This document shows positions 1 through 19,905 of a stretch of DNA of 19,905 nt, one piece after another (position 1 is the stretch's first letter; every line of letters starts with the position of its first letter). The stretch is from the IMG/VR virus record IMGVR_UViG_3300045988_172277; one strand, given 5' to 3'. The stretch is from a virus. The notes under the pieces were generated by a model, which was given only the letters and a program-made list of their open reading frames with translations, was not told the DNA's origin and ran no database searches. The position numbers were made by a program, and so were the translations under genes.

Positions 1-24
1 TTCAGACGTGTGCTCTTCCGATCT
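1..24. other. Illumina TruSeq adapter remnant (reverse complement of AGATCGGAAGAGCACACGTCTGAA); technical, not biological
   Basis: Exact 24-nt adapter string TTCAGACGTGTGCTCTTCCGATCT, mirrored at the other contig end. Confidence 0.97.
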
Positions 25-234
25 AAAAAATGCCTTAGCACATTTTTCGGGTGGTATTCTTCCCCCCATTAAGTAGTATCAAATACCATATAACTAAAAC
101 ATCTGTTCGTGTGGCCTAATCAATAATCATTATCCATTAACACTAATTTTCATATAATAATATTGCTCCATACCTTATCATAATATTTGTCGAAAATTTT
201 TATATATTTCTTTTAAATATTTAACCAAAAAGTA

Positions 235-263
235 TTGCATTTTCTGCTCAAATATTATATAAT
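235..263 (+). promoter_or_regulatory. Sigma-A-type early promoter inside left ITR (TTGCAT-17 bp-TATAAT)
   Basis: -35 TTGCAT at 235..240 and -10 TATAAT at 258..263 with 17-bp spacing, upstream of the first ITR gene. Confidence 0.6.
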
Positions 264-344
264 TAAATCATGGAAAGGGAAATAGATTAAATACAGAATT
301 CGACAAAATATGTCGAAAAATAAAATAAAGGGAGATTGGTTAAA

Positions 345-980
345 ATGTTAAAAAGAGACGTTAAAGAAATGGTTGAATATTTAATAAGTGAAAGAAAATC
401 TTTTAAGGTTACATTTGCTAATGGTAAAGTAGAAGTTATTGAATACAGAGGTTATTGTTGGGTATTAGGTAACAAAGGTTATAGTGATAAAGACTTAGTT
501 AAAAAAATGGTTAGGTTCCAAGACAATGTTAGTAAGTTCATAATCAGATTAGAAGTAATCGAAGAAGTAGAAGAATTAGAAGAAGTAGAAGAAATGAATT
601 ATGAAAAATCTTTAATAGAAGAAGTTGAAAATTTAAATGATGATTTATTCCAAGAAGAAGACATTGCATACTGTGAGGAAGCAATTGAAAGAGAAACACA
701 CAAAAAGGATAATGATATTATTACTAAATATGAGAATGATTTTTCTAATGGGTGCAATCAAAAATTAGTGTTCGGAAAAGGGTTAAATATAAGAGAAGAA
801 AGAGATATAAAAAACTATGGTAAAGAATTAAACAACATGAAAAAATATTTAGTTAATGTTTTAGGATTAGTTTTAAGTAAAGCACATAAAGTCATACAAA
901 CTTTAAATAGAAACAATAAAGTAATATTTAATAATGGTGAAATTAGTTTCTTTATAAAGATTAAGGAGGGGTGTAGTTAA
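345..980 (+). CDS. Hypothetical early protein with strongly acidic central region (ITR copy 1)
   Basis: The ORF track starts at TTG 336, only 1 nt after the SD AGGGAG (329..334). ATG 345 has about 10-nt spacing and is preferred. Central E/D-rich segment EEVEELEEVEEM...EEDIAYCEEAIERE. No recognisable family. Confidence 0.75.
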   Translation: MLKRDVKEMVEYLISERKSFKVTFANGKVEVIEYRGYCWVLGNKGYSDKDLVKKMVRFQDNVSKFIIRLEVIEEVEELEEVEEMNYEKSLIEEVENLNDDLFQEEDIAYCEEAIERETHKKDNDIITKYENDFSNGCNQKLVFGKGLNIREERDIKNYGKELNNMKKYLVNVLGLVLSKAHKVIQTLNRNNKVIFNNGEISFFIKIKEGCS

Positions 981-1144
981 TGAAAAGGTTGTTAAATTTA
1001 TGTAATAAATACAATTTAAAGTATAAAGGTAGAAACTCAAAAGGTTTCTATCTTGTATACAATGAAACTAATAGACATTTAATAAAAGGTTGTACGATTG
1101 AAAGTACAATATCAATAATTAATAAATATTATAAGGAGGGTTAA
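980..1144 (+). CDS. Hypothetical small protein, 54 aa (below ORF-track threshold; ITR copy 1)
   Basis: ATG overlaps the upstream stop (TAATG). SD AAGGAGGGG at 962..970. Hand translation MKRLLNLCNKYNLKYKGRNSKGFYLVYNETNRHLIKGCTIESTISIINKYYKEG. Fills an otherwise empty gap in a tightly packed operon. Confidence 0.55.
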   Translation: MKRLLNLCNKYNLKYKGRNSKGFYLVYNETNRHLIKGCTIESTISIINKYYKEG

Positions 1145-1146
1145 AA

Positions 1147-1341
1147 ATGACAAATCATGAAAAATTAATATTATATTTAGTGCAAGATAAAGTATCTTTT
1201 ATGATGGAAAATAATTGTGATAATAATTATATAGCTTTATATATTGATGATGTTATATCTAAATTACCTTCGGGTTATTCATGGGAATTATCTTCAATAT
1301 TATATAGAATGCACGATAATTTCTTAATGTATAAAGAATAA
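1147..1341 (+). CDS. Hypothetical small protein, 64 aa (ITR copy 1)
   Basis: ORF track entry. SD AAGGAGGG at 1133..1140 precedes the ATG. Confidence 0.7.
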   Translation: MTNHEKLILYLVQDKVSFMMENNCDNNYIALYIDDVISKLPSGYSWELSSILYRMHDNFLMYKE

Positions 1342-1354
1342 TAAAAATTGGGGG

Positions 1355-1711
1355 TTGAGGGTTATTAATATAAAATGTATAAACAATTATTTATTAAAAA
1401 ATTATTTAACTATAGGTAAACTTTATAATGTTGAACTGAAAGAAAATCGTGGATTTACAATTATAGATGATAGTGGCAATTTATTTGTTTATTGCTCTGA
1501 TAGGTTTACAATAGTAGATGACTTACCAATTGTAAGTAGTTTTAAATTAATAAAAGCAATAAATTCAGTTGGTATAAGTAAATATAAAATAATATCTAAG
1601 AACAGTAAATATGTTGTATTAGAAGAAACAAGTACAAGCTATTATGTTATAAATGACAAAGGTGCAAAGGGTAAATATCCAAAATCAAATTTTCAAATAG
1701 TAAAGGGGTAA
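1355..1711 (+). CDS. Hypothetical protein, 118 aa, with two tandem copies of a small domain; longer paralog of 18381..18551
   Basis: The ORF has no in-frame ATG at all. TTG 1355 directly abuts a G-rich SD-like run, so the start codon is uncertain. The first 56 nt lie inside the ITR. Confidence 0.55.
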   Translation: MRVINIKCINNYLLKNYLTIGKLYNVELKENRGFTIIDDSGNLFVYCSDRFTIVDDLPIVSSFKLIKAINSVGISKYKIISKNSKYVVLEETSTSYYVINDKGAKGKYPKSNFQIVKG

Positions 1712-1715
1712 AATT

Positions 1716-1829
1716 ATGGTCAATAATCAATTATGGGTAAATTATAAATTATACTGTTATAAAAATGGATTTGCAGAGGGTAGTTATAAAGTGTTTAGAG
1801 AATTTATGTTAAAAAACTTTACAATTTAA
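1716..1829 (+). CDS. Hypothetical micro-protein, 37 aa
   Basis: ATG 1716 preceded by SD AAAGGGG (1702..1708). Hand translation MVNNQLWVNYKLYCYKNGFAEGSYKVFREFMLKNFTI. Confidence 0.4.
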   Translation: MVNNQLWVNYKLYCYKNGFAEGSYKVFREFMLKNFTI

Positions 1830-1846
1830 GGTTAAAATCATACAAT
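1818..1846 (+). promoter_or_regulatory. Putative promoter TTTACA-17 bp-TACAAT (CATACAAT class)
   Basis: -35 at 1818..1823 and -10 at 1841..1846. No ORF lies between it and the terminator at 1950..1986. Confidence 0.45.
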
Positions 1847-1852
1847 ATAGTA

Positions 1853-1980
1853 TAATCCTAATTTAAACTTTTTAACCTTTTTTCTATTTTTCTATAACAT
1901 TTATTTTATCAGTATTTTAAACAATCTATCTCAAAACTTGAACAGAATTAAGAGTAACAAAATTAGTTACTCTTTTTTCT
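1853..1980 (+). ncRNA. Candidate small non-coding transcript (about 125-130 nt), function unknown
   Basis: Bounded by a predicted promoter (1818..1846) and an intrinsic terminator (1950..1986). It contains no ATG or GTG. The only TTG has no SD. Confidence 0.3.
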
Positions 1981-1986
1981 TTTTAT
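1950..1986 (+). terminator. Rho-independent terminator
   Basis: Stem AAGAGTAAC (1950..1958) pairs with GTTACTCTT (1966..1974) around a 7-nt loop, followed by TTTTCTTTTT. Confidence 0.7.
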
Positions 1987-2000
1987 TATAAAAATTTTTA

Positions 2001-2029
2001 TTAACATTTTTACTTAAATAACATACAAT
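2001..2029 (+). promoter_or_regulatory. Putative promoter TTAACA-17 bp-TACAAT (CATACAAT class) for the SSB operon
   Basis: -35 at 2001..2006 and -10 at 2024..2029, located right after the terminator and 47 nt before the SSB start. Confidence 0.45.
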
Positions 2030-2075
2030 ATAATATAAGGAAAAATAAAAATATTAAAAAGGGGATTTTAACATT

Positions 2076-2501
2076 ATGAATAAAGTATTTATCAATGGGA
2101 ATTTAACAAAAGACATGGAAGTTAATGTATTACAAAGTGGTACTTACGTAGGTAAGTTTACAGTTGCAAATACTGTAGGATTTGGCGATAAGAAAAAAAC
2201 TTACTTTGTACCTTGTACATTATTTGGAAAAAGAGTAGAAAGCCTAGAGAAATTACTACTTAAAGGAACTGGAGTATTAATTGAAGGTCAACTTGATATT
2301 ACAAATAAACAAGATGAAAATGATAATTGGAAAAATTATGTTAATGTTGTTGTTACTGAAATTGAAATAACAAAATTTAAAGAAGTTATTAATTATAATG
2401 ATAAAACTGTTGAAGAATTAAGACAAATTTGTAAAGATAAAAATATAAAATTCACATATAAAGATAGTAAAGAAGTTTTAATAAAGAAAATAAATGCTTA
2501 A
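2076..2501 (+). CDS. ssb: Single-stranded DNA-binding protein (OB fold) with a C-terminal HeH/SAP (Rho_N-like) motif in place of an acidic tail
   Basis: N-terminus MNKVFINGNLTKDMEV...GKFTVA...F.PCTLFGKRVE...LKGTGVLIEGQL matches the bacterial/phage SSB OB-fold pattern. C-terminus KTVEELRQICKDKNIKFTYKDSKEVLIKKI fits the helix-extension-helix pattern. Confidence 0.8.
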   Translation: MNKVFINGNLTKDMEVNVLQSGTYVGKFTVANTVGFGDKKKTYFVPCTLFGKRVESLEKLLLKGTGVLIEGQLDITNKQDENDNWKNYVNVVVTEIEITKFKEVINYNDKTVEELRQICKDKNIKFTYKDSKEVLIKKINA

Positions 2502-2516
2502 AGGAGAATATAAATC

Positions 2517-2786
2517 ATGTTAGAAAAATTACAATTATTAAAAATTGAAGTTGAGCAAGAAATTGAAAGTGTAAAGGAGCAATTAAAAGTTTCAAAAACT
2601 GATATTAAGAAACTTGAAAATGGTAAAAAGGTAGCAGTTGAAATAGGTGTTGATGTTAATCAAATTGATGAAAGAATAAGTTCTACAAATCATTTAATTA
2701 TAAATTTAAATAATAGAGTATCTGTATTAAAGAAAGTTAAATATAGATTAGAAATAGCAGAAAAAATGTTACATGAAATACAATAA
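2517..2786 (+). CDS. Hypothetical coiled-coil protein, 89 aa
   Basis: ORF track entry. SD AAAGGAGAA precedes the ATG. Heptad-like charged sequence. Confidence 0.65.
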   Translation: MLEKLQLLKIEVEQEIESVKEQLKVSKTDIKKLENGKKVAVEIGVDVNQIDERISSTNHLIINLNNRVSVLKKVKYRLEIAEKMLHEIQ

Positions 2787-2823
2787 TAATTAATCATTGC
2801 AATTCACCTCTTTAAATAAATTT

Positions 2824-2853
2824 AGAGCAGACAATATCTGCTCTTTTTATTTT
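2824..2853. terminator. Intrinsic terminator at the convergence point of the left and rightward transcription units
   Basis: Stem AGAGCAG (2824..2830) pairs with CTGCTCT (2838..2844), followed by a T-run on the + strand. The - strand tail is weaker (AAATTTATTT). It lies between the 2786 stop (+) and the 2847 stop (-). Confidence 0.7.
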
Positions 2854-3845
2854 ACACCTAAATCTTTTAGCATTTCATACATAGCTATTTTTATTTCTAT
2901 ACTTTTAAATCTAACTTTTCCAAATTGAAAGTATCTTATTAAATTATTAAAACAACTATTCCCAATATATTTATTATTTAAAAAAGTATTATCGTTATGG
3001 TCAGAAGCTAGTACGCTAAAACATTTTGCAGTTTTAGTGGGTTTATCAGTAATGTAAAGTATATCTTTTACAACATTTCCCCAAACCATGTATTTTTTAT
3101 TTTTATATTCTATTGAAAAATATTCATCACAATGCTTTAAACTCATTTGCTCTACAAATGTATTACTATCTCTTAAAGATTTATTTTCTATAGCATAATC
3201 ACTATATTTTGTATTTCTTATTAGTTTACCAAACTTTGTTTGCTTTTTCATTTCAATAAAAATATCATCTGTATTGTATTCTATTACCATTTCACCATCA
3301 CGAAGTAATGTAAATCTTTCACCCTCAACTATTTTTGCATTGAAATATGTAAAATAAGGGTTAACTTTTGTAATATTATTGGCTAAGAAATACATTCTTA
3401 CATTATTTCTAGTTCTTGCAACAGTTTCGTAAAAATCTAAAGCAACATCAACCTCATTAGGAATATATCTCATACTTACACTTTTATCTACAATAAATTC
3501 ATCAAACATTATAGTTGTTACATTTGGATAAGCAACAGATTTATACCTTTGAGAAACACTTAAAGCAACTGGAAACCCTGCGACTTTTCCATCTATATAA
3601 AATTTTCCTTTCTTATATTCTAATTTATTATTTGGAAATTTATTTCTTATATCATCAAACCATTTATCATTATCTTTAAGTTCTGTTTTCCATCTTCTTA
3701 AATAAATAAATTGCTCACCTTTTTTTAAAAAGTTTTTAATACATTTTTTTTTAAGGCCATATGATTTACCAAACCCTCTGTTTGTCAAAATAAAATTCCA
3801 TATGGCATTATAACTACATATTTTATCATAATTGTAATAATTCAT
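2847..3845 (-). CDS. DNA packaging (encapsidation) ATPase, phi29 gp16-like
   Basis: 332 aa, the same length as phi29 gp16. Walker A TNRGFGKSY, GEQFIYLRR, and Walker B YPNVTTIMFDEFI closely parallel gp16 (GARGIGKSY, GEQFIYVRR, YPNVSTIVFDEFI). SD AAGGAGGT. Confidence 0.93.
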   Translation of the reverse strand: MNYYNYDKICSYNAIWNFILTNRGFGKSYGLKKKCIKNFLKKGEQFIYLRRWKTELKDNDKWFDDIRNKFPNNKLEYKKGKFYIDGKVAGFPVALSVSQRYKSVAYPNVTTIMFDEFIVDKSVSMRYIPNEVDVALDFYETVARTRNNVRMYFLANNITKVNPYFTYFNAKIVEGERFTLLRDGEMVIEYNTDDIFIEMKKQTKFGKLIRNTKYSDYAIENKSLRDSNTFVEQMSLKHCDEYFSIEYKNKKYMVWGNVVKDILYITDKPTKTAKCFSVLASDHNDNTFLNNKYIGNSCFNNLIRYFQFGKVRFKSIEIKIAMYEMLKDLGVK

Positions 3846-3865
3846 ATTTTACCTCCTTAAAGTAA

Positions 3866-3884
3866 AAGCACCTAAAAGGTGCTT
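3866..3884 (-). terminator. Stem-loop between the holin-like gene and the ATPase gene (possible leaky terminator or processing site)
   Basis: On the - strand AAGCACC-TTTTA-GGTGCTT is followed by TTACTTT. The T tract is interrupted, so termination efficiency is doubtful. Confidence 0.3.
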
Positions 3885-3887
3885 GTC

Positions 3888-4055
3888 TTATTTATTAAAT
3901 TTGTCTTCTAAGTTGTCCATGCGTGTGGAAATTTCTTTTAATGTAACATTTAAATTATTTAAAGCTTCGGTAAACTTACCATTATTTATAAACATTACAA
4001 TGCAACAAGTAATTGGAAAACCTACATTACTTATCATACTTACTATTTCTTCCAT
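3888..4055 (-). CDS. YvrJ-like small membrane protein, 55 aa, putative holin (below ORF-track threshold)
   Basis: Hand translation MEEIVSMISNVGFPITCCIVMFINNGKFTEALNNLNVTLKEISTRMDNLEDKFNK. The NVGFPI motif plus a hydrophobic segment resembles the YvrJ family. SD GAGAGGT. Position just before the ATPase parallels the phi29 lysis cassette. Confidence 0.5.
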   Translation of the reverse strand: MEEIVSMISNVGFPITCCIVMFINNGKFTEALNNLNVTLKEISTRMDNLEDKFNK

Positions 4056-4100
4056 ATAATTTTACCTCTCTCATATAGTTTTACATAATTTAACTTATTG

Positions 4101-4661
4101 TTAATAAATAACTTTTAAACTAATTTTTTTATTACTTAAAGTTATAGAATTATCAGTTACATTTGTGAACCTAAGACTTAATACATTTTCATTTTCTATT
4201 CTATAATCATATATCACACCATTTTCAATACCTTCACTAAAATAAATATTAATTATAGATGTTTGAGGTATGTTATCATCTAATGGTACCATAAAACATT
4301 TTGAAGTCTTTGCTTCAATTATTGCATTTCCTCCAGTAATTAGCGATAAATCCGAAAAACTTTTTAAAGAAAAATTTAAATTTTTACTTATTTCTGTAAT
4401 TAATTCATTTTTTAAATTGATAATTATATAGTTGTTTATTATTTCTTTTAAAGTCCCATCATCTTTCCATGTATTAAGTATTTCTTTTACGTTATCCTCT
4501 ACACCTTCATTTTTTATCCATTCTAGTATTTCTGATGAATTGTTACATAAATTAAAACATTCTTCTAATTTTTGAAAAAACTTGCATTTTAACTCTTCAT
4601 TTGTCATATCAGAAAAATTATATATCGTTTTTAATAAATCTTCTCTAAATCCTTTTATCAA
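4101..4661 (-). CDS. Hypothetical late protein, 186 aa (possible tail or receptor-binding accessory)
   Basis: TTG start, 7 nt after SD AAAGGGGG. Downstream of an internal promoter. No motif recognised. Confidence 0.6.
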   Translation of the reverse strand: MIKGFREDLLKTIYNFSDMTNEELKCKFFQKLEECFNLCNNSSEILEWIKNEGVEDNVKEILNTWKDDGTLKEIINNYIIINLKNELITEISKNLNFSLKSFSDLSLITGGNAIIEAKTSKCFMVPLDDNIPQTSIINIYFSEGIENGVIYDYRIENENVLSLRFTNVTDNSITLSNKKISLKVIY

Positions 4662-4711
4662 AGCTATACCCCCTTTTATACAATAAAATGTAAAATTTAC
4701 ATTTACACTTT

Positions 4712-4740
4712 ATTGTATGATAATATAATATTATTTGCAA
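4712..4740 (-). promoter_or_regulatory. Internal promoter TTGCAA-17 bp-TACAAT (late motif TCATACAATAAAGTGTA)
   Basis: On the - strand, -35 at 4735..4740 and -10 at 4712..4717. It shares a 17-nt identical block with the promoter at 12881..12909. Confidence 0.5.
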
Positions 4741-6885
4741 TTAATTTCCAGTCATTATTTTATTTTCGACCCAAGTACCAGGACTTCCACTTGTTGTACA
4801 TGTCCACCCATCAATGATAAATAAACTGCCTGCAGTACCTTGCTCAACTGGCCTATAATTTTTTACAATATCTCCTCTATACCATTCACCTTGAGTAGGA
4901 GGTGCTATATGAAAATCATTACTATTAGAAATACTATCATTTAATGTTTTTTTCATTTCATTGTTAAATATTTTTGTAGTTTCTAACGCACCATTGATAA
5001 ATATTCCATTGTTAGCATATAATCCACCGAATTTTTGCTCTATATTATTTTTAAATATACTGTTTTTAATATTTTTCAACGTCCAAATAGGTGATTTGGT
5101 ATTTGTGAAAACATTATTTGTAACAGTTAAATCAACTACATTATCCGTAAAAACTATTCCACTGATTAAACTTACAAATTTGTTACTATCAAATATTATA
5201 TTACTTTTTTCATTAAATGCTTTATTACAAAATATCCCTATACATTTTTGACCACCAGAAAGATTATTACCAACTACATATAACAAATTGTTTGATTTGT
5301 GTTCGGCTATTGTAGTATTATTTTGTCCTCTTTCTATTGTAAGTCTTAAAATATCATATGTCCTTTTAGTTGTCATTCTTGTTGTTTTAATTACATTTGT
5401 TATTTTTATTAGTTCATTATCAATACTAGCATAGTCCCCAACATCAATATTAAACTCTTTATAGTATGCTACTTCTATTGTAGTATCTGTAAGTGATAAA
5501 CTTGTTAAAGTTGCATAAGGTAAACTGGAAAAAGTATTACCAACTATTTCAACACCTTGACTTACATTTGATTTAAAATGTATTAACATTCCTTTTCCAT
5601 AAACTACATTGTTTTTTATTATAGCGTTTTTATAAGTGTCACCAGCTTGACTATCGTCTCCCATAATAATACATAAATCAGTATTTAATCCACCTTTGTT
5701 TATGATTGTATTGTCTAAGACTTGTGCTCCATATGAATTGTTTTGAATTGACACTCCCCCGAAGTTTCCGTTGCTATCAATTATTATTGTATTACCTATT
5801 AATTTATGATTTGCACCACCACTAAGATAAACTCCAAATTTGCTTTTTAGGTATGAGTTTCGACAAATACAATTGCTTGATTTCATATTGGTTAAATCTT
5901 CTTTTGTATCATCACCAAATTCTAAAGCACCATCTGCTGCGTTTAAACTTATACAATTATCAACAAGTATATCTGTTGCTTCCCTTGGGAAATAAAATGC
6001 GTTTTGTGCTTTTGTGTCATCAACTAATACTTTTCTAACTGTAATTCTAGTACAATAATTACCAACAATTCCATTACTTCCACTATTGTATATTTTACAG
6101 TTTTCTATTAACCCATCTGTTACATATTCTAACCAAATTGAACCAGCACTAGTTTTAGAGCAACCGATATTTTGTATTATACAATCTCTAATTAATATAT
6201 TATTTACATACATTAACTTAACACCACATATAAGTTGTGTGTAAGTTGGGTCTTTATAACCAGTTATTGTTAACTTTTCAATACTAATATTATTACAATA
6301 TTGGGATTGTGTCCCTTGAATATCAAAAACATTAAACTCTCCATTTACTTCTATTTCTGAAAAATTCCCTTGGATAGCTATATTATTTTTATTTCTTAAT
6401 TGTATAGGTTTGTTTATTTTTATTTTTATATTTCGAGGAAATAAAATTGTTGTATTGTCTTTTAAATTTAAACTTAAACTATCAACATCTAAAATATTAT
6501 CAGTTATATAATTATCTGCATATAAATTTACAATACTACCTATTTGCGAATTAATTTCACTAACTTTAGTATCTATTTGTGAATTAATTTCTTTTATTTT
6601 ATTTTCAATTTTATTTTTAGTATCTACAATTTCATTTTTATTTTCTTCAATTTTATTATTTAATTGAACTTGTATATTTTCATCAATTAATATCTTTCTT
6701 AGTTTCTCATATTCACTTTTAATTTTTTTCATTAATGCAACTAAATTTGTATCACTTAATTTAATTTTTTCTGATAGTTTTTCAATGTCTTTCTCTAATT
6801 TTTTCCATTGTTGAAAATCAATGGCATTTTGGTCTTGTAATTCTTTTACATTTTGTTGAATTTTGTTTACATCAATATCGCTCAT
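4741..6885 (-). CDS. Tailspike / pre-neck appendage-like protein with an N-terminal coiled coil and a right-handed beta-helix (pectin-lyase-like) domain
   Basis: 714 aa. Residues 1-125 are heptad-rich. Repeated beta-helix signatures follow (NCISLNA.DGALEFG, NSGSNGIVGN, IENCKIYN, VLDNTIIN). Position after the collar gene matches phi29 gp12. Confidence 0.75.
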   Translation of the reverse strand: MSDIDVNKIQQNVKELQDQNAIDFQQWKKLEKDIEKLSEKIKLSDTNLVALMKKIKSEYEKLRKILIDENIQVQLNNKIEENKNEIVDTKNKIENKIKEINSQIDTKVSEINSQIGSIVNLYADNYITDNILDVDSLSLNLKDNTTILFPRNIKIKINKPIQLRNKNNIAIQGNFSEIEVNGEFNVFDIQGTQSQYCNNISIEKLTITGYKDPTYTQLICGVKLMYVNNILIRDCIIQNIGCSKTSAGSIWLEYVTDGLIENCKIYNSGSNGIVGNYCTRITVRKVLVDDTKAQNAFYFPREATDILVDNCISLNAADGALEFGDDTKEDLTNMKSSNCICRNSYLKSKFGVYLSGGANHKLIGNTIIIDSNGNFGGVSIQNNSYGAQVLDNTIINKGGLNTDLCIIMGDDSQAGDTYKNAIIKNNVVYGKGMLIHFKSNVSQGVEIVGNTFSSLPYATLTSLSLTDTTIEVAYYKEFNIDVGDYASIDNELIKITNVIKTTRMTTKRTYDILRLTIERGQNNTTIAEHKSNNLLYVVGNNLSGGQKCIGIFCNKAFNEKSNIIFDSNKFVSLISGIVFTDNVVDLTVTNNVFTNTKSPIWTLKNIKNSIFKNNIEQKFGGLYANNGIFINGALETTKIFNNEMKKTLNDSISNSNDFHIAPPTQGEWYRGDIVKNYRPVEQGTAGSLFIIDGWTCTTSGSPGTWVENKIMTGN

Positions 6886-6895
6886 AATTTACCTC

Positions 6896-7549
6896 CTAAA
6901 AAACAAATAAGAATAAGTTTTCAAGTTCTTTAAATATCATTTGGTCTATGTTAATTAAAACATTTCTCCACTTTTCTAATAGTTCTGCACTTGATGTAAT
7001 ACCAATGTTACCTTGTGATATTAATTCATACTCTTCTGTGTTATTTGACTTATTTTTTATTGTATTGTTTGCATTAGACGTAGAATTATTTGTTGAATTA
7101 CTATTAGTTTTACTTGCTGATGTCATATATTTATCTAAATCATCAATCTTATTTTGAGGTGTATCATTAGCAATTGATAAATCATTACTGGTAGATGTGT
7201 TATCACTACTAGAAGTGGCTTGACTATTTCCTTCGCTTTCCCCGTTTAACTTTCTTATATAGCTTTCTCTTAAATCTTTATTTAACATAAAGTCTATGTC
7301 ATGACATCTTATTTCTGTTTCATAAAGTTGTTTGTACTTTGGATAAATATCATTAAGTGTAGAAATTAAATGTTGTTTAAAAATATTAATATTATCAAAC
7401 CCAATTTCATAAAACATAAAATGCTGAAAAAATTTTTCTTGAAAGTAAGGCTTTAACTCATTATTATACAAGTTGTAAGGTTGGTCAAATAAATTATAAG
7501 TATCATCTTTATAAATGTAATAAAGTTGTAATGTATATTTACTACTCAT
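6896..7549 (-). CDS. Putative lower collar protein (gp11 position) with an S/N/T-rich low-complexity insert
   Basis: Assigned by synteny only, immediately after the portal gene. Start moved to ATG 7549 (MSSKYT...), 6 nt after SD AGGAGG. The track start at 7573 lies inside the portal gene. Confidence 0.5.
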   Translation of the reverse strand: MSSKYTLQLYYIYKDDTYNLFDQPYNLYNNELKPYFQEKFFQHFMFYEIGFDNINIFKQHLISTLNDIYPKYKQLYETEIRCHDIDFMLNKDLRESYIRKLNGESEGNSQATSSSDNTSTSNDLSIANDTPQNKIDDLDKYMTSASKTNSNSTNNSTSNANNTIKNKSNNTEEYELISQGNIGITSSAELLEKWRNVLINIDQMIFKELENLFLFVF

Positions 7550-8405
7550 TATTTTCCTCCTTTTCCTCATCATCTTGATAATATTTAGTTATCATTTCTT
7601 TGTTAGGTAATACTTTTACATTTAATCCAAATTTTTTATTAATTTCTTCACATGCTTGAAGTCTATTTTTATACATTAACATTGCATTTGTACTAATAAA
7701 GTCATTATTAGAATTGATTTCATCAGTTAATAACCTTTCTTTTTTTTCAAAGTTGTTATTTAATGATAAAAAAGTTAATATTTCTCTTTCAAGTTCGTAT
7801 TTATATTCGTTTAATTTATCAGCTACATAAGGCGTCGGCATAGTTAACACTTCTAGTGCATTTTCTCCTAATCCAATATCCTTATTAGCTAAAATAAAAG
7901 GCTCAAAATTTTCTACCTTTTCAAATATTATTTCTAGTGATTTTTTGGTTTTTTCTGTCGCATTAATGAACCATGGAAATTTTTGTTGATTTATATTTGC
8001 TCTTATACACATTTCAACCTCTAACATTCTTTCAGCATAATTACTTATATAATGTCTTGTTGCTTTTGCTAAATCATTATTTCTAATTAAAACACAATCT
8101 TTTTTATTTATATAATTAATAGTTTTTATATAATTATAACCCGAAGTTATTACCTCTGTACTTTCCCCATTTATATTCATATTAGCACCAAAATTACAAG
8201 GTACTGAAATTAAACTCATATTATCATCATTGTTAACAAGACAAAGCCCATTTTCATATAGTGCATTTTCAATGTAACGAGAGTTCATTGTTTGAGGTAA
8301 ATTTTCCCATGTAAACATGTTTAATGCTAACATTTTATAATAATCATAAATTCTAGTAAAATTTATATTTTTATAAACTTCTATTGCTTGTTTATTTTTA
8401 CTCAT
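7542..8405 (-). CDS. Portal / upper collar connector protein, phi29 gp10-like
   Basis: FTWENLPQTMNSRYIENAL, TPYVADKLNEYKYELEREILTFLSLNNNFEKKERLLTDEINSNND and ACEEINKKFGLNVKV parallel gp10 (FEWENLPPTINPSFLEKSI, APYVVDKLNAQK...LEKKERMVTDEVSSNDE, ACEKINELYGLNVKV). Start set at ATG 8405, 7 nt after SD GGAGGTG. Confidence 0.9.
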   Translation of the reverse strand: MSKNKQAIEVYKNINFTRIYDYYKMLALNMFTWENLPQTMNSRYIENALYENGLCLVNNDDNMSLISVPCNFGANMNINGESTEVITSGYNYIKTINYINKKDCVLIRNNDLAKATRHYISNYAERMLEVEMCIRANINQQKFPWFINATEKTKKSLEIIFEKVENFEPFILANKDIGLGENALEVLTMPTPYVADKLNEYKYELEREILTFLSLNNNFEKKERLLTDEINSNNDFISTNAMLMYKNRLQACEEINKKFGLNVKVLPNKEMITKYYQDDEEKEENNE

Positions 8406-8409
8406 AATA

Positions 8410-9699
8410 TTACACCTCCACATTCCCTTGTAATTGACTTACTGAATAATCTCCAATATTTGCCCCATTGTCAACGTGCCAAATTGTTACACCTCTATTA
8501 AAAATATCCTTTATTTCTTCTAAATATTCATGAGGTATTTCATCACCTACAATGTTACAAGTATTTGTTTTAATAAAGTTAAAATAACGTCTTGAATTTA
8601 CATTAATTTTTTCCCACTTATTAACTTTATATCCATACTTAACAAAATAATCATAAATTCTATGCTTGTATCTAAAATCTAAACCAAATTCTATAATATC
8701 TATCTTTCTATTACTATTTACTAAATTAAATAGCGTGTCGTTACCACTTGTTTTTATACTATTTGGAGTGTTTAATAAGTCTGTTGTTTTAGCATTTGCT
8801 AATGATGATACTTCAAAATTTGATAATTTATTTTTTTCTTTTAATTGACTATTATTTAAATTATTTGACAATGTATTAAAATGTTGGTTTATTCCTGCTT
8901 GTGCTACTCCCATTGCTCCATTAACAACTCCACCAAAATTTAATGAAAGTAAACTTGCAATTGCACCTAAACCACTACTAATACCCTGCATGTAATTATT
9001 TGTTGTATTTTGTCTATAATTTAAACTATTAGTTGCTAACCCTTGCTTTAATGTCAAATCATTTTCTAACATTGCATTAATATTACCTTGGTTAAAACTT
9101 GCTGAACTTGTTGCTAAAAATTGAGAATACGCACTAGATAAAACTGGTAACATTAAAGGACTATTATTAACAATTCCGTTTAAATTACCATTATAATCTC
9201 CCTTATAACCATTTACATATAAATTATATTTACTTTCTGTTGCAATATTTGTTGCTTTTACTCTTAATTTTAATGTCTTATTTTCACATAGTTCGGGTTT
9301 TATAACAAGAGGAGTATTCATATAGTCAGTTATCATAAAATATCTGAAAGGAAATGTGTATAATTTTGGTTCAAAAGTGGGTAATCCATTATCGTTGTCG
9401 GGGAAAGTATTTAATTCGTATAGTTGTTTATCAATTGTATCAAATCCCGACATTCTGTAACACTTTGGTATGCCACCTTTTGGTGAGCCGTACCTATCAC
9501 TATCAAATGAACACTCAACTATTGTACTCATGTCGTCAACTTCAATAAAAGGGTTATATGTTAAACTTTGTATTGTATCAACAAATCCTAAATAAGTTGC
9601 ACTATTAATTTTTTCCCTAGGTATGCAATAGTAATAAAGTCCAACGGGAATATTTCCCATTACACTACTTTCAATATCATTTCCAGCTACAATACTCAT
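8410..9699 (-). CDS. Tail knob protein, C-terminal two thirds of a phi29 gp9-like protein (includes the Gly/Ala-rich hydrophobic loop)
   Basis: YFVKYGYKVNKWEKINVNSRRYFNFIKTNTCNIVGDEIPHEYLEEIKDIFNRGVTIWHVDN parallels the gp9 C-terminus ([36 protein letters not shown]...IFDNGITLWHTDN). GLYYYCIP resembles the gp9 CYYIHP. The loop GISSGLGAIASLLSLNFGGVVNGAMGVAQAG resembles the gp9 pore-forming loop. Confidence 0.85.
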   Translation of the reverse strand: MSIVAGNDIESSVMGNIPVGLYYYCIPREKINSATYLGFVDTIQSLTYNPFIEVDDMSTIVECSFDSDRYGSPKGGIPKCYRMSGFDTIDKQLYELNTFPDNDNGLPTFEPKLYTFPFRYFMITDYMNTPLVIKPELCENKTLKLRVKATNIATESKYNLYVNGYKGDYNGNLNGIVNNSPLMLPVLSSAYSQFLATSSASFNQGNINAMLENDLTLKQGLATNSLNYRQNTTNNYMQGISSGLGAIASLLSLNFGGVVNGAMGVAQAGINQHFNTLSNNLNNSQLKEKNKLSNFEVSSLANAKTTDLLNTPNSIKTSGNDTLFNLVNSNRKIDIIEFGLDFRYKHRIYDYFVKYGYKVNKWEKINVNSRRYFNFIKTNTCNIVGDEIPHEYLEEIKDIFNRGVTIWHVDNGANIGDYSVSQLQGNVEV

Positions 9700-9711
9700 T
9701 CATTACACCTC

Positions 9712-11274: not shown

Positions 11275-11290
11275 TTTTATACCTCCTAAT

Positions 11291-11318
11291 ATTAGAAAAG
11301 GGGAAAATTTTTCCCCTT
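11291..11318 (-). terminator. Hairpin with short T tract just after the capsid gene (probable partial terminator or attenuator)
   Basis: On the - strand AAGGGGAAA..TTTCCCCTT is followed by TTCT. It sits between the capsid stop (11322) and the SD of the next gene. Confidence 0.45.
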
Positions 11319-11321
11319 ATA

Positions 11322-13620: not shown

Positions 13621-13646
13621 ATTTTCCAATCCCCTTTTTATTTTTA

Positions 13647-15806
13647 TTATCTTTCAAAATAATTATTTAAACTAATCATGTAAGCTTGCTCTTGTATTAT
13701 TGTACCACCTTTTATAATTTTTGACTTTTTAGATTTTATTAGTCCTTTAATCTTTTGTGTACATGCTTTATCTTTATAATAATATATATCACCTTCTTTT
13801 GTGAAATATTCCATTTTTGCTAATTCTTTTGCAGAATATTCGCAAACATCAAATACATTTATATCATCTAACTTTTTCATTATTTCATCAGTTAACCCAC
13901 AACATTTAATTTCCCATTCATGAGTTTTAATATTTTTTTCTGCATACCTTTTTGAACCAATATATTTGAAATCTTCAAAACACATTTCATTATCCCATAA
14001 TCCATAATCCTTTTTACCAATTTTAACACCTTTTACATCTTCAATTCTTCCATATAAATGTAAACTGTCAGTATCACAATACATAAATCTTTCATAGTTG
14101 TTATTAATTGCTTTAACTAAGTAATCTTTTGCCCAACTTGTTATAAAAGTTGCCATTGGTAAATAAATTGTATCACTTACAACATTTTCATGAGTGTGTT
14201 CAATTGTAAATACATCATCTACATTTTGAAAGTTTGTTAATTCTGTAACTCCTGCCATTCCAAACTTACCATACAATCCATTTTGCATTAACTTTGCAAA
14301 TGCCCTTAACGCTCCCTCATATTTTTTCTTAATCTTTTTCCAAAAATCTATATAATTTTTAAACAAATTATAACTTCCCATAAAAGCCATATGGCCACCA
14401 AGTTTATAAGCCTTTACATCATAACACTCAAAAAGCAAATCTAGTAAAACATTTGTTAATCTTAAATGTAATGTTACTTTTTTTCCATCTTTAATGTTAT
14501 TTTTTAAGCACTCCCTTCCACTAAAATGCTTGTTGTCTTTTACTTGTAAAAATGACATTTTATTCTTTTTAACTTTCAAATCAAAAATCGTTATATCTTG
14601 AATGTAAAGAGGGTAAAGTTCTTTGTAGTTTTCATTCATATTTTTATATGGGGTATCCCTATATTGTGCGTCGCCATAGGGTAATAATCGTGAAGTCATT
14701 ACAAAAGGATATAATGAATTAACATCTAAAACAATACCATTTCTATTTTTTCTTTTACTAAACTTTTTCACATTATTATATTCTACTGCACTAAGGCCAC
14801 CATAGTAACTATGTCTTTGCCATGCGTCTTGAAAATAACTTTGTTTTGGAAATAAAGCTTCAAAAATTATATTACTTTTTATTTCTGTTACATTACCTTT
14901 ATTTTTTAACTTATGAAAATTTGTTTTCATTAGTTTAGTATCAACCATTTCATATAAATTTTCATTTTCAAAACTATTTTGTTTATTAAGATAATCTTCT
15001 AAAAGTGTTAATTTATAATTTGCTAATGCTTGACCCGAATTTGTAAGCTTATCATATTTAATCTTTTGACCGTTTAAATCAATACCATTTATTTTTAATA
15101 ATTTTACTAGATAAGATAAACCAAATACATCTTCATAAATATACGTCATTTCTTGCTCTGTTAAAATATCATCAAGAGTTCTTTCTTTTTCATAGTCTAA
15201 ACCATCTTTACCCAAATTCAATCCTAGAAAATCAGAGCAACATTTTTTTAATGAAAATGGAGCAAGTTTAAAGGTATCATAAAAATTTATTAGACCGTAT
15301 TCAGTTGCTATAGTTAATTTATAAAACACACCATTTTTCATAAGTAATCGATATTCAAAAGGCTTTAATTCTTTATTTTCTTTATCAGAACTTTGAAAGT
15401 TTAAAACCTCATAAATTTTTTCAAATTCATTCCATTGTTTTTTTAAAAAATAATCTTCTTGTCTTTGTTTATTTCCATATCTCTTTACAAAGTCTAGTAG
15501 AAAAGGTTTTACATCATATAAACAGTTATGAGCAAATAAATTAATTTGTTTACAATTTAGATTTATTATCATGTCATTAAATTTACTAACATTATTGTAC
15601 CAGTAACATAAATCACTATCATTATTACAACTCATAAGAGCAATTGAATAAGTTAACATCTCACTTTTATTATTTATTGCACACGCTTCTATATCAAATG
15701 CAAAATTCAAAACGTCTTTATCACTTGTAGCTTTTATTTTATCTTTAGAAATATAATTCATAATCCCATTATTCTTTATATCTTTTAACCTTTCATTCAA
15801 ATCCAT
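13647..15806 (-). CDS. Protein-primed family-B DNA polymerase (phi29 gp2-like)
   Basis: Exo I FDIEA, Exo II HNCLYDVKPF, Exo III YIYEDV. Motif A LDVNSLYP, motif B KLMQNGLYGKFG, motif C YCDTDSLH, and KxY in GSKRYAEK. Confidence 0.95.
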   Translation of the reverse strand: MDLNERLKDIKNNGIMNYISKDKIKATSDKDVLNFAFDIEACAINNKSEMLTYSIALMSCNNDSDLCYWYNNVSKFNDMIINLNCKQINLFAHNCLYDVKPFLLDFVKRYGNKQRQEDYFLKKQWNEFEKIYEVLNFQSSDKENKELKPFEYRLLMKNGVFYKLTIATEYGLINFYDTFKLAPFSLKKCCSDFLGLNLGKDGLDYEKERTLDDILTEQEMTYIYEDVFGLSYLVKLLKINGIDLNGQKIKYDKLTNSGQALANYKLTLLEDYLNKQNSFENENLYEMVDTKLMKTNFHKLKNKGNVTEIKSNIIFEALFPKQSYFQDAWQRHSYYGGLSAVEYNNVKKFSKRKNRNGIVLDVNSLYPFVMTSRLLPYGDAQYRDTPYKNMNENYKELYPLYIQDITIFDLKVKKNKMSFLQVKDNKHFSGRECLKNNIKDGKKVTLHLRLTNVLLDLLFECYDVKAYKLGGHMAFMGSYNLFKNYIDFWKKIKKKYEGALRAFAKLMQNGLYGKFGMAGVTELTNFQNVDDVFTIEHTHENVVSDTIYLPMATFITSWAKDYLVKAINNNYERFMYCDTDSLHLYGRIEDVKGVKIGKKDYGLWDNEMCFEDFKYIGSKRYAEKNIKTHEWEIKCCGLTDEIMKKLDDINVFDVCEYSAKELAKMEYFTKEGDIYYYKDKACTQKIKGLIKSKKSKIIKGGTIIQEQAYMISLNNYFER

Positions 15807-16624
15807 TAATCATACACTCCTTTTAATTCTTTAAGTGTTTTGTATTTTTGTATTGATTTACTAACAGTATCATAAATATTTGTTTCAATTCTTTCTTCAT
15901 TTCCAATTACACTATCTTCGGGGTATCTATCTCTTAAATCTCTTAAAACTTCTTTAATCCACATATCTTTTTGAAGTGGTGTTAAACTGTTGTATTCTTT
16001 CCTTATCATTTCTTGTACGTAAGGCTTACACCCTAACTGTATACTAGGTGATGTCATAAATTCATTATTAAACCAGTTGTCATTTTCTGTACTGTCTGTT
16101 AATTTTTTATAAACATTAATAAATTTTATATCTTTCATATCTTGTTTGAACTTCTTTATCATTTCTTTTTTAGTTTTATTATCTGCAATATAAATATTAT
16201 CTAAGTGTTCCAATGGAATACCATCATATATAAATGATTTTTTATCATAATAAGTTAAGAATAAATCTTTACCCTTAAGATAATTTATTTGCAATTTTGG
16301 TAATCCCATTGTTTCAAGTGCTTGAAGTGTTTTATCAACTTCTTTATTATAGTTTTTAATAGTTTGATTGTATTGATAGTCAATTGACTTTTTGTAAGAT
16401 TTTTTTATAGTAGTTTCTTTTTTAATAACAGAATTTAACCCAGTAGTAATTTTATTAACTGCTTGCGTTAATTGTCTTTGTGAAAGTGATTTCCCTTGTA
16501 GATAACTTGGAATTGAGTACCCTAATAGTTCATATTTTTTAACTAAATATTTAATTTTTTGTTTATCATTTTTATTTGAAAAGTCTACCCTTTTAAGACC
16601 ACTTAATTGACGTTTAGCGTTCAT
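15806..16624 (-). CDS. Terminal protein (phi29 gp3-like primer protein)
   Basis: 272 aa, immediately upstream of the polymerase and overlapping it by 1 nt (TAATG). The basic N-terminus NKNDKQKIKYLVKK resembles the phi29 TP KDNDKAEYARLVKN. The genome has ITRs and defined ends. Confidence 0.75.
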   Translation of the reverse strand: MNAKRQLSGLKRVDFSNKNDKQKIKYLVKKYELLGYSIPSYLQGKSLSQRQLTQAVNKITTGLNSVIKKETTIKKSYKKSIDYQYNQTIKNYNKEVDKTLQALETMGLPKLQINYLKGKDLFLTYYDKKSFIYDGIPLEHLDNIYIADNKTKKEMIKKFKQDMKDIKFINVYKKLTDSTENDNWFNNEFMTSPSIQLGCKPYVQEMIRKEYNSLTPLQKDMWIKEVLRDLRDRYPEDSVIGNEERIETNIYDTVSKSIQKYKTLKELKGVYD

Positions 16625-18380: not shown

Positions 18381-18551
18381 TTATTCTTCAACTATTTCGA
18401 AATCACATTCATGATATAACCACTCATAACCACTATCATCAACAATAGCGTAAAAGTCAATAGTTTTATCTATCACATCATAAACTTTACCAAATGTTAA
18501 ATAATTTTTTAATAAATAATTGTTTATACATTTTATATTAATAACCCTCAA
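18381..18551 (-). CDS. Hypothetical protein, 56 aa; short paralog of 1355..1711 (below ORF-track threshold)
   Basis: Same TTG and first 56 nt as 1355..1410 because that part lies inside the ITR. Hand translation MRVINIKCINNYLLKNYLTFGKVYDVIDKTIDFYAIVDDSGYEWLYHECDFEIVEE. Start codon uncertain, as for the paralog. Confidence 0.5.
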   Translation of the reverse strand: MRVINIKCINNYLLKNYLTFGKVYDVIDKTIDFYAIVDDSGYEWLYHECDFEIVEE

Positions 18552-18564
18552 CCCCCAATTTTTA

Positions 18565-18759
18565 TTATTCTTTATACATTAAGAAATTATCGTGCATTCT
18601 ATATAATATTGAAGATAATTCCCATGAATAACCCGAAGGTAATTTAGATATAACATCATCAATATATAAAGCTATATAATTATTATCACAATTATTTTCC
18701 ATCATAAAAGATACTTTATCTTGCACTAAATATAATATTAATTTTTCATGATTTGTCAT
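18565..18759 (-). CDS. Hypothetical small protein, 64 aa (ITR copy 2 of 1147..1341)
   Basis: Identical mirror copy. Confidence 0.7.
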   Translation of the reverse strand: MTNHEKLILYLVQDKVSFMMENNCDNNYIALYIDDVISKLPSGYSWELSSILYRMHDNFLMYKE

Positions 18760-18761
18760 TT

Positions 18762-18926
18762 TTAACCCTCCTTATAATATTTATTAATTATTGATATTGT
18801 ACTTTCAATCGTACAACCTTTTATTAAATGTCTATTAGTTTCATTGTATACAAGATAGAAACCTTTTGAGTTTCTACCTTTATACTTTAAATTGTATTTA
18901 TTACATAAATTTAACAACCTTTTCAT
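18762..18926 (-). CDS. Hypothetical small protein, 54 aa (ITR copy 2 of 980..1144)
   Basis: Identical mirror copy. Confidence 0.55.
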   Translation of the reverse strand: MKRLLNLCNKYNLKYKGRNSKGFYLVYNETNRHLIKGCTIESTISIINKYYKEG

Positions 18927-19561
18927 TAACTACACCCCTCCTTAATCTTTATAAAGAAACTAATTTCACCATTATTAAATATTACTTTATTGTTTCTATT
19001 TAAAGTTTGTATGACTTTATGTGCTTTACTTAAAACTAATCCTAAAACATTAACTAAATATTTTTTCATGTTGTTTAATTCTTTACCATAGTTTTTTATA
19101 TCTCTTTCTTCTCTTATATTTAACCCTTTTCCGAACACTAATTTTTGATTGCACCCATTAGAAAAATCATTCTCATATTTAGTAATAATATCATTATCCT
19201 TTTTGTGTGTTTCTCTTTCAATTGCTTCCTCACAGTATGCAATGTCTTCTTCTTGGAATAAATCATCATTTAAATTTTCAACTTCTTCTATTAAAGATTT
19301 TTCATAATTCATTTCTTCTACTTCTTCTAATTCTTCTACTTCTTCGATTACTTCTAATCTGATTATGAACTTACTAACATTGTCTTGGAACCTAACCATT
19401 TTTTTAACTAAGTCTTTATCACTATAACCTTTGTTACCTAATACCCAACAATAACCTCTGTATTCAATAACTTCTACTTTACCATTAGCAAATGTAACCT
19501 TAAAAGATTTTCTTTCACTTATTAAATATTCAACCATTTCTTTAACGTCTCTTTTTAACAT
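18926..19561 (-). CDS. Hypothetical acidic early protein (ITR copy 2 of 345..980)
   Basis: Identical mirror copy. Start adjusted to the ATG, as for copy 1. Confidence 0.75.
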   Translation of the reverse strand: MLKRDVKEMVEYLISERKSFKVTFANGKVEVIEYRGYCWVLGNKGYSDKDLVKKMVRFQDNVSKFIIRLEVIEEVEELEEVEEMNYEKSLIEEVENLNDDLFQEEDIAYCEEAIERETHKKDNDIITKYENDFSNGCNQKLVFGKGLNIREERDIKNYGKELNNMKKYLVNVLGLVLSKAHKVIQTLNRNNKVIFNNGEISFFIKIKEGCS

Positions 19562-19642
19562 TTTAACCAATCTCCCTTTATTTTATTTTTCGACATATTT
19601 TGTCGAATTCTGTATTTAATCTATTTCCCTTTCCATGATTTA

Positions 19643-19671
19643 ATTATATAATATTTGAGCAGAAAATGCAA
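19643..19671 (-). promoter_or_regulatory. Sigma-A-type early promoter inside the right ITR (mirror of 235..263)
   Basis: Identical mirror copy, TTGCAT-17 bp-TATAAT reading inward. Confidence 0.6.
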
Positions 19672-19881
19672 TACTTTTTGGTTAAATATTTAAAAGAAAT
19701 ATATAAAAATTTTCGACAAATATTATGATAAGGTATGGAGCAATATTATTATATGAAAATTAGTGTTAATGGATAATGATTATTGATTAGGCCACACGAA
19801 CAGATGTTTTAGTTATATGGTATTTGATACTACTTAATGGGGGGAAGAATACCACCCGAAAAATGTGCTAAGGCATTTTTT

Positions 19882-19905
19882 AGATCGGAAGAGCACACGT
19901 CTGAA
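19882..19905. other. Illumina TruSeq adapter remnant AGATCGGAAGAGCACACGTCTGAA; technical, not biological
   Basis: Exact adapter string, including the A-tail base. Confidence 0.97.

Follow-up and report, generated by a model that had tools for sequence, protein, structure and literature searches.

Phages of the phi29 type are the model for protein-primed replication, and their inverted terminal repeats (ITRs) are treated as short, non-coding origins. Published ITR sizes are 6 bp for phi29, 6-16 bp for its Bacillus relatives and 25-30 bp for the Clostridium perfringens podophages (PMC4974454, PMC6266182, PMC3362512), and the ITRs are annotated as 236 bp long in Cp-1, 350 bp in Mycoplasma P1 and 577 bp in Lactococcus asccphi28, all of them non-coding. 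A literature search for kilobase-scale ITRs in terminal-protein phages found no report, within an incomplete coverage of the literature. Here we analyze the IMG/VR virus record IMGVR_UViG_3300045988_172277, a stretch of 19,905 nt (the window, by which we mean its full length), whose ITR spans 1,386 bp and carries an early promoter, three complete genes and part of a fourth. An original prediction, made from the letters of the window, had described a phi29-like genome with a terminal, kilobase-scale, gene-carrying repeat and had contrasted it with the short, non-coding ITRs of the well-studied phages: the B-family DNA polymerase (PolB), gp16 ATPase, connector, major capsid protein (MCP) and tail knob were all found in the window, and the contrast holds against both phi29 (6 bp; PMC4974454) and Cp-1 (236 bp; annotated record). 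We consider it highly probable that the window is the complete linear genome of an uncultivated phi29-like podophage of the human gut, with protein-primed replication from both ends, in which one illegitimate recombination placed an inverted copy of the left terminus at the right end. Comparison with relatives points to the long ITR being a derived and strain-specific state, reached via replacement of the native right end, rather than a trait of the family.

Direct comparison shows the window to be its own reverse complement over positions 1-1410, with the first mismatch at 1411, and thus bears out the predicted exact reverse complementarity of 25..1410 and 18496..19881. The two copies together make up 14% of the genome, and a perfect inverted repeat of 1.4 kb cannot have arisen by chance. 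The figure of 1431 nt at "100%" returned by a repeat finder is rounded: self-BLAST gives 99.65% over 1431 nt, with mismatches at 1411, 1412, 1414, 1421 and 1427 in the last 21 nt. The outermost 24 nt at either end of the window are remnants of a sequencing adapter (Table 1), and without them the phage genome measures 19,857 bp, with a GC content of ~25%. This adapter is directly joined to AAAAAATG here, to AAAAAATGG at the 5' end of the relative 146843, and to AAAAATC at both ends of the relative 152738; since it abuts these termini, they are physical DNA ends, and nucleotide 25 is the physical end of the phage in the window. At least 1 kb of identical inverted sequence is therefore present at both physical ends, with complete genes inside it, as in other replicons with gene-carrying ITRs. 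Untrimmed adapter is of the index-side type only at the five termini where it was observed, which would be the expected pattern if the 5' ends were blocked by a remnant of the terminal protein.

Table 1. Features of the window (19,905 nt); coordinates count from its first letter
Feature	Coordinates	Strand	Remarks
Illumina TruSeq index-side adapter remnant, not phage DNA	1..24	+	identical to the last 24 nt of GTGACTGGAGTTCAGACGTGTGCTCTTCCGATCT
Left ITR, 1,386 bp	25..1410	+	origin, early promoter, genes 1-3 and first 56 nt of gene 4
Putative protein-primed replication origin	25..68	+	terminal run AAAAAA (25-30) and C-rich motif CTTCCCCCCA (59-68)
Early promoter TTGCAT-N17-TATAAT, reading inward	235..263	+	exact match; mirror 19643-19671 (-)
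Gene 1, 211 aa	345..980	+	mirror 18926-19561 (-)
Gene 2, 54 aa	980..1144	+	mirror 18762-18926 (-); GGAGG ribosome-binding site
Gene 3, 64 aa	1147..1341	+	mirror 18565-18759 (-)
Gene 4, 118 aa, DUF6501	1355..1711	+	PF20111, E = 7.7e-07; putative left recombination partner
Microhomology ATTTAAC, 7 nt, at the joint	1404..1410	+	mirror 18496-18502
DNA polymerase and adjoining 272-aa open reading frame, region	13647..16624	-	PF03175, E = 4e-31; phrog_1907, E = 3e-89
Candidate terminal-protein open reading frame, 272 aa	15806-16624	-	adjoins the polymerase gene; assignment from position only
Chimeric gene 4', 56 aa, DUF6501	18381..18551	-	PF20111, E = 4.2e-07
Right ITR	18496..19881	-	copy of the left terminal block, apparently in place of the native right terminus
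Adapter remnant, mirror copy at right end	19882..19905	-	same adapter match

The inner boundary of the repeat lies within a pair of genes, and it is here that its origin can be read. On the left it falls after the first 56 nt of gene 4, and on the right it falls within gene 4'; the two are paralogous (59% amino-acid identity, both with PF20111) and face each other near opposite ends of the genome. Gene 4' is a chimera, to which gene 4 contributes codons 1-18 and most of codon 19, and a native right-arm gene 4' the remainder. Nucleotide alignment places the change at ATTTAAC, outward of which the right arm equals the left-arm gene 4 and inward of which it equals the native gene 4' of the relatives L035 and L041; in L034 and L035, the homology of the right arm to the window has its limit at exactly 18502. 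In L035/L041 the native gene 4' encodes a DUF6501 protein of 51 aa from its own ATG, with its own ribosome-binding site, and in the native form the junction reads ACTGCTGATTTAAC-ATTTGG with L035-type genes upstream. Gene 4 and the native gene 4' share the 7 nt at the joint and a 13-nt patch further out.

Both parental arms are represented among the relatives. Left arms with genes 1-2-3-4, crossing position 1410 into the unique region, were found in nine other assemblies at 92-97% identity, and gene 4 is 95-96% identical in the relatives 162982 and 167188; it is a frequent arrangement among relatives for genes 1-4 to be confined to the left end. The native right arm of L035/L041 consists of small genes followed by gene 4', p75 and p123, while L034 and L042 have the same gene 4' and p123 with p75-sized genes between them that give no significant match to p75. 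The window's p75 and p123 are 96% and 93% identical in amino-acid sequence to those of L035. The three right-terminal genes that L035 carries upstream of gene 4' (94, 66 and 66 aa) have no counterpart in the window, which suggests that the native right-end accessory genes were lost. Clustering gives 155 members for the native gene 4' and two for the chimera. The second chimera, P0302, is encoded on another JGI contig of 17,303 nt and reads LTIGKVYDV where the window has LTFGKVYDV, which places its crossover in the next shared patch, GGTAAA (1415-1420), 10 nt further in, the next mismatch between the arms being at 1421. In this sister strain the boundary was probably shifted later by 10 nt, through gene conversion or an alternative repair of the heteroduplex. 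A chimeric joint at ATTTAAC and a 10-nt shift of it in a sister strain are what is expected of a boundary made or moved by recombination between the ends. The event is readable to the nucleotide because both parental arm types still circulate.

The original prediction had noted that equally long coding ITRs in close relatives would remove the novelty of the repeat. Our set of whole relatives, reconstructed or retrieved, comprises 16 genomes of two clades, and all 16 have non-coding ITRs of ~90-270 bp; the window's ITR has several times the length of any of these. In five close relatives (162982, 167188, L033, L058 and L070) the right-arm match to the window's ITR stops at the same position, 223, corresponding to an ITR of ~199 bp that ends ~12 nt before the -35 hexamer; one relative reaches ~270 bp. 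The ITRs of the close relatives hold the origin and nothing else, and each arm then continues with its own promoter and small early genes; in 167188 the short ITR (the equivalent of window 124-223) directly adjoins the p75 gene. In the second clade, 152738, with adapter at both ends, has an ITR of 87 bp if exact (~125 bp at 96%), and the others range over 89-236 bp.

Several catalogue contigs end in exact inverted repeats of the length of the assembler's k (162982 and 167188, 99 nt; 135506, 119 nt; L068, 55 nt); such contigs have cut ITRs, so that for phages of this kind the catalogues give ITR sizes that are too small and genomes without their true ends. Gene-1 homologues are skewed toward short contigs, from which one might take long ITRs to be common in the family; this is unproven, as the whole relatives are all short-ITR and variable termini fragment assemblies anyway.

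One recombination would lead from the arms of the relatives to those of the window. It would have exchanged the native right-terminal ~1 kb for the left-terminal 1,386 bp, copied in inverted orientation; it would have taken place at ATTTAAC within the inverted paralogues, gene 4 on the left and gene 4' on the right, and turned A-U-B into A-U-rc(A). This might have occurred by break-and-join or, more likely, by a template switch of the strand-displacing polymerase: if a left-primed nascent strand changed templates at ATTTAAC and continued along the opposite strand at gene 4', A-U-rc(A) would result in one step. A precedent is presented by the strand-displacement activity of the phi29 DNA polymerase in vitro, i.e. 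in multiple displacement amplification (MDA), where >85% of the chimeras are inverted and >70% start at 2-21 nt of complementarity (PMC1855051). A far more general picture may be drawn, in which end-to-end copying by template switching is recurrent and ongoing in protein-primed phages, moves early and possibly anti-defence cassettes between the two early operons, and later lets the ITR creep inward via gene conversion; the present strain would then be its first natural snapshot, with the doubled genes 1-3 kept as a higher early dosage is advantageous. We regard this picture as possible but rather doubtful.

The same comparisons bear on the converse history, in which the long coding ITR is ancestral, has been kept identical by concerted evolution and was shortened in the relatives. 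The 10-nt difference in boundary between the two chimeric strains is compatible with continuing homogenization, and the disproportion of gene-1 homologues on short contigs is a possible hint of repeats elsewhere in the family, though strain-variable termini explain it equally well. Such a history would have to account for the short ITRs in every one of the whole relatives from two clades, for a match limit common to five of them, and for a native gene 4' that has its own start codon and ribosome-binding site, lies below different upstream genes and is widespread where the chimera is rare; we therefore hold it to be very unlikely.

Independent assemblies supply further evidence for the right-end replacement. 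The contig k127_37136 (ENA ERZ947750), assembled by MEGAHIT at k=127 from the Fijian FijiCOMP cohort (SRR2248167, PRJNA217052) and recorded in 13 samples, agrees with the window at 100% over the 10.4 kb of it that were compared, 1284-11711. Its start at 1284 equals 1410-127+1, and its size of 17,339 equals the unique region of 17,085 plus 2x127, so that its other end should lie at 18622, the exact mirror of 1284; this is the form that a de Bruijn unitig takes when it is flanked by an inverted repeat longer than k. The complementary piece is present in a SPAdes assembly from another study (ENA ERZ2663860), where NODE_7060 (1,408 nt, k-mer coverage 30.6) equals window 3-1410 and stops at the boundary. 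The size of the contig with P0302 can be resolved likewise, 17,303 being 17,065 + 2x119. The exact gene-1 protein is on contigs of <2 kb in 11 of 14 index blocks; this exact-protein index is patchy, as at least five proteins (the polymerase, the 272-aa open reading frame, p123, P0001 and MCP) have no record there though they are in the protein collection. By this arithmetic of the unique region plus 2k, the contigs indirectly suggest that both copies lie on one molecule. Scans for the junction and terminus patterns in the JGI metagenome contigs, IMG/VR and the GTDB genomes found none, and the window's strain is therefore absent from the scanned copies. The lineage is viable: it was found in many people, and in one sister variant the boundary is shifted.

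These contigs also speak to the proposal that both junctions are real but lie on separate molecules, a mixture of parental genomes with rearranged or defective genomes or by-products of replication. It draws on the ready production of inverted chimeras by phi29-type polymerases (PMC1855051) and on fold-back junctions in single assemblies of L058 and L079, which attest to the existence of aberrant inverted molecules or library chimeras in these phages. With a coexisting parental end, however, the unique contig would branch at the joint and stop ~7 nt past 18495 and not 127 nt into the repeat, and a size of 17,339 fits no such branch; L035-type right-terminal genes are missing from the window; the same structure recurs across the 13 samples of the population cohort and in other studies; and a sister variant with a shifted boundary implies a replicating lineage. 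We accordingly give a mixture of molecules very little weight. The inverted fold-back junctions just mentioned lie near the C-rich terminal motif, in L058 at 9448-9611/9600-10282 (Logan SRR27430270_425) and in L079 in the last 70 nt (ERZ1034701 NODE-422); one of them joins ITR coordinate ~60, in reverse complement, to the interior of gene 1 at TAATGGG. Their source may be by-products of replication, defective genomes or chimeric library molecules.

Also very unlikely is the assembler-made palindromic end against which the original prediction had cautioned, i.e. a block present only at the left end whose reverse complement was appended at the right, e.g. by a false join via the DUF6501 paralogues: perfect identity of the arms is what an assembler would produce by reusing one graph edge, and metagenomic ITR calls are known to include artefacts (PMC9610469), but gene 4 and the native gene 4' share so little (the 7 nt at the joint and the 13-nt patch outward, far below any assembly k) that no assembler with k >= 21 could bridge the joint without real reads, MEGAHIT and SPAdes in different studies both break exactly at 1410, for which two real continuations after at least 127 nt of identical sequence are needed, the sizes fit the unique region plus 2k in two assemblies, and the second contig encodes a chimeric protein with a shifted crossover.

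Certain points weigh against the replacement of the right end as we have set it out. The support for the repeat comes from assembled contigs; where the k127 contig ends on its far side, and what DNA makes up the 17,303-nt contig, is deduced from sizes and one protein; and the base-perfect identity of the arms was perhaps imposed by an assembler that used one graph edge for both. The form of the ancestor's right arm is presumed from that of the relatives. Template switching and ordinary illegitimate recombination would leave the same sequence and cannot be told apart by it, and any benefit from duplicating genes 1-3 is speculative.

The content of the repeat agrees with the gene and promoter layout that had been predicted for it: the inward TTGCAT-17-TATAAT promoter is present as an exact motif in each copy, and three complete genes of 211, 54 and 64 aa are followed by the first 56 nt of a fourth (1355-1410). 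Origins and early promoters are, as also anticipated, identical at both ends, each of which carries the same A-run and C-rich region, the promoter and genes 1-3. Both clades of relatives have kept the terminal A-run and, 35-45 nt inward of the terminus, the C-rich motif, which in the window lies at 35-44 nt (mirror 19838-19847); CTTCCCCCCA resembles the C-rich CTCCCCCACC found near the terminus of Cp-1. We thus predict an origin function for 25-68, with the C-rich motif as a candidate origin-recognition element. Relatives of both clades carry this exact promoter motif no more than ~300 nt from the end of the contig, and those with a known true end have it ~140-180 nt away from that terminus. 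A generic sigma-70 scan is uninformative in such AT-rich DNA (27 sites against 25 expected), and the promoter is called on account of its conservation in the relatives and not from that scan. Upstream of the early promoter, at 187-197, lies the motif TTTGTCGAA, which recurs in relatives, and just downstream of the promoter, at 299-317, the hairpin TTCGACAAAATATGTCGAA; the two may together make up an operator pair.

Genes 1-3 have ribosome-binding sites of the GGAGG type. Homologues of gene 1 (n=186) all belong to this group of phages and, as judged from their alignment, are modular, with a conserved N-terminal domain of 70 aa, an acidic helix or linker and a hypervariable C-terminal domain. 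Such a layout is typical of fast-evolving host-interaction proteins. Gene 1 gave no Pfam or PHROG match, and its AlphaFold2 model, of low mean confidence (pLDDT 60.7), no Foldseek match at E <= 0.001 in PDB or BFVD. From one homologue to another the C-terminal domain is exchanged, with at least six unrelated types, and DUF3310 (PF11753) is present in some of the homologues. The exact gene 2 protein is on 20 contigs, in a cluster of 43 members, and that of gene 3 on 21 contigs; in other strains gene 3 belongs to the left arm only, contiguous with gene 4. The right early operon, which continues into the candidate terminal-protein gene and the polymerase gene, would now open with genes 1-3 and the chimeric DUF6501 gene. 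This would double the number of templates for genes 1-3 and render early expression from both ends symmetrical. The gene-1 homologues P0196 and P0213 and the native gene 4' homologue P0305 are recorded on contigs of 107-114 kb, far above phage size, which could reflect mis-scaffolding, a different mobile element or a host locus.

The remainder of the genome is that of a phi29-like phage. The window's polymerase matches the structures of the phi29 DNA polymerase (PDB 1XHX/2EX3) with E = 2e-49, and the phi29-type morphogenesis and packaging set comprises the gp16 ATPase, the connector gp10, MCP, the tail knob gp9 and the lower collar, recovered through the profiles PF05894 (8e-75), PF05352 (5e-51), PF25622 (2e-77) and PF20934 (8e-24), with phrog_5472 for the lower collar. 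Beside this gene set a lysozyme/NlpC-P60 tail lysin and a beta-helix spike are predicted. The linear genome of 19,857 bp, with ITRs and the reiterated terminal base in AAAAAATG, falls within the ~12-28 kb known for phi29-like phages. The 272-aa open reading frame next to the polymerase gene, a candidate for the terminal protein, is kept in the second clade at ~42% identity and has no family match in profile searches of Pfam and PHROG. Rfam searches gave no match at E <= 1 to a prohead RNA (pRNA) or any other RNA family anywhere in the genome; to our knowledge, the pRNAs of distant phi29-like members are too diverged for a search of this type to rule one out.

The closest polymerases are those of C. 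perfringens podophages, at ~33% identity, with 27-33% among the 30 best hits to annotated phages, and megablast against 50,697 phage records gave no nucleotide match, placing the phage in no named genus or family. It represents, on its gene content and distant polymerase matches, an unclassified lineage of the phi29-like kind (of the Salasmaviridae / Guelinviridae type, formerly Picovirinae). Relatives are abundant in human gut metagenomes, and none was found in 185,579 species-representative genomes that might have pointed to a host. Given the GC content of 25%, the lysozyme and NlpC/P60 tail lysin and the distant relationship to C. perfringens phages, our guess is a low-GC Gram-positive gut anaerobe.

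Certain further features vary between strains or lie outside the ends. The spike (receptor-binding) gene (window 4745-6590) is swapped between strains that are otherwise 91-93% identical: here it encodes a 714-aa beta-helix protein, in L056 a protein of 641 aa, and in L054, L055, L057 and L059 one of 699 aa and of GDSL-lipase type. Between the polymerase and capsid genes, at 12931-13629, is the gene for a 232-aa protein with weak matches to sigma-70 region 2 and a recombinase domain, which may be a late-transcription regulator. A bidirectional terminator hairpin is found at 2824-2844, between the convergent left early and late operons. In the second clade (L008-L020, 64% polymerase identity) the late module, from MCP to the ATPase, has the opposite orientation with respect to the polymerase gene and the candidate terminal-protein gene when compared to the window, and L010, L012 and L020 have a gene-1 homologue at the polymerase-proximal end.

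The window thus indicates that a phi29-like phage can tolerate and transmit a 1.4-kb ITR with a promoter and three genes, and it presents a concrete route by which the ends of protein-primed genomes might be rebuilt and their terminal early genes swapped. There is also a practical corollary: from such genomes, de Bruijn assemblers produce a unique contig with inverted ends of length k and a separate contig for the repeat, and a split assembly of this kind can be mistaken for a complete genome with an ITR of length k.

Set beside known systems, the phage shares much with the characterized small protein-primed phages, which likewise have a linear genome of ~12-20 kb with ITRs and a gene for a protein-primed PolB, likewise reiterate the terminal base, as initiation by sliding-back requires, and, in the case of Cp-1, asccphi28 and P1, likewise have an early promoter in or beside the ITR. 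It differs from them in the ITR itself, which is non-coding and at most 577 bp long in those phages, whereas here 1,386 bp hold three complete genes and part of a fourth. The joint is comparable to the chimeras produced by the phi29 DNA polymerase in MDA (Lasken and Stockwell 2007, PMC1855051), as both show an inverted junction at a short microhomology, of 7 nt in our case; those chimeras, however, are an in-vitro artefact at random sites, whereas here one junction is fixed in a viable lineage across many samples and studies.

The ends of adenoviruses offer a further parallel. In the repair or panhandle model for their ITRs, the ends of a protein-primed linear genome can copy each other and thereby stay identical; adenovirus ITRs are ~100-200 bp long and non-coding, and we know of no panhandle intermediate shown for phi29-like phages. 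Identical inverted ends with whole genes are found in poxviruses, in Streptomyces chromosomes and plasmids and in fungal linear plasmids (e.g. kalilo). In these linear replicons the boundary varies between strains, lies inside genes, and the repeats arise and change through recombination in which one end is replaced by a copy of the other. They are either far larger or are not tailed phages with a small capsid of fixed size, and the poxvirus ends are hairpins rather than protein-primed. The ITR extension described here is real, strain-specific and the product of terminal replacement; it is not a new kind of system but an ITR of a protein-primed phage at the kilobase scale and with genes, as in those much larger linear replicons. 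Set against what textbooks describe for phi29-type ends it comes as a surprise, and its history can be read with unusual clarity. What sets it apart from the ITRs of the poxvirus, Streptomyces and kalilo type is that its formation can be traced to the nucleotide while both types of parental arm continue to circulate.

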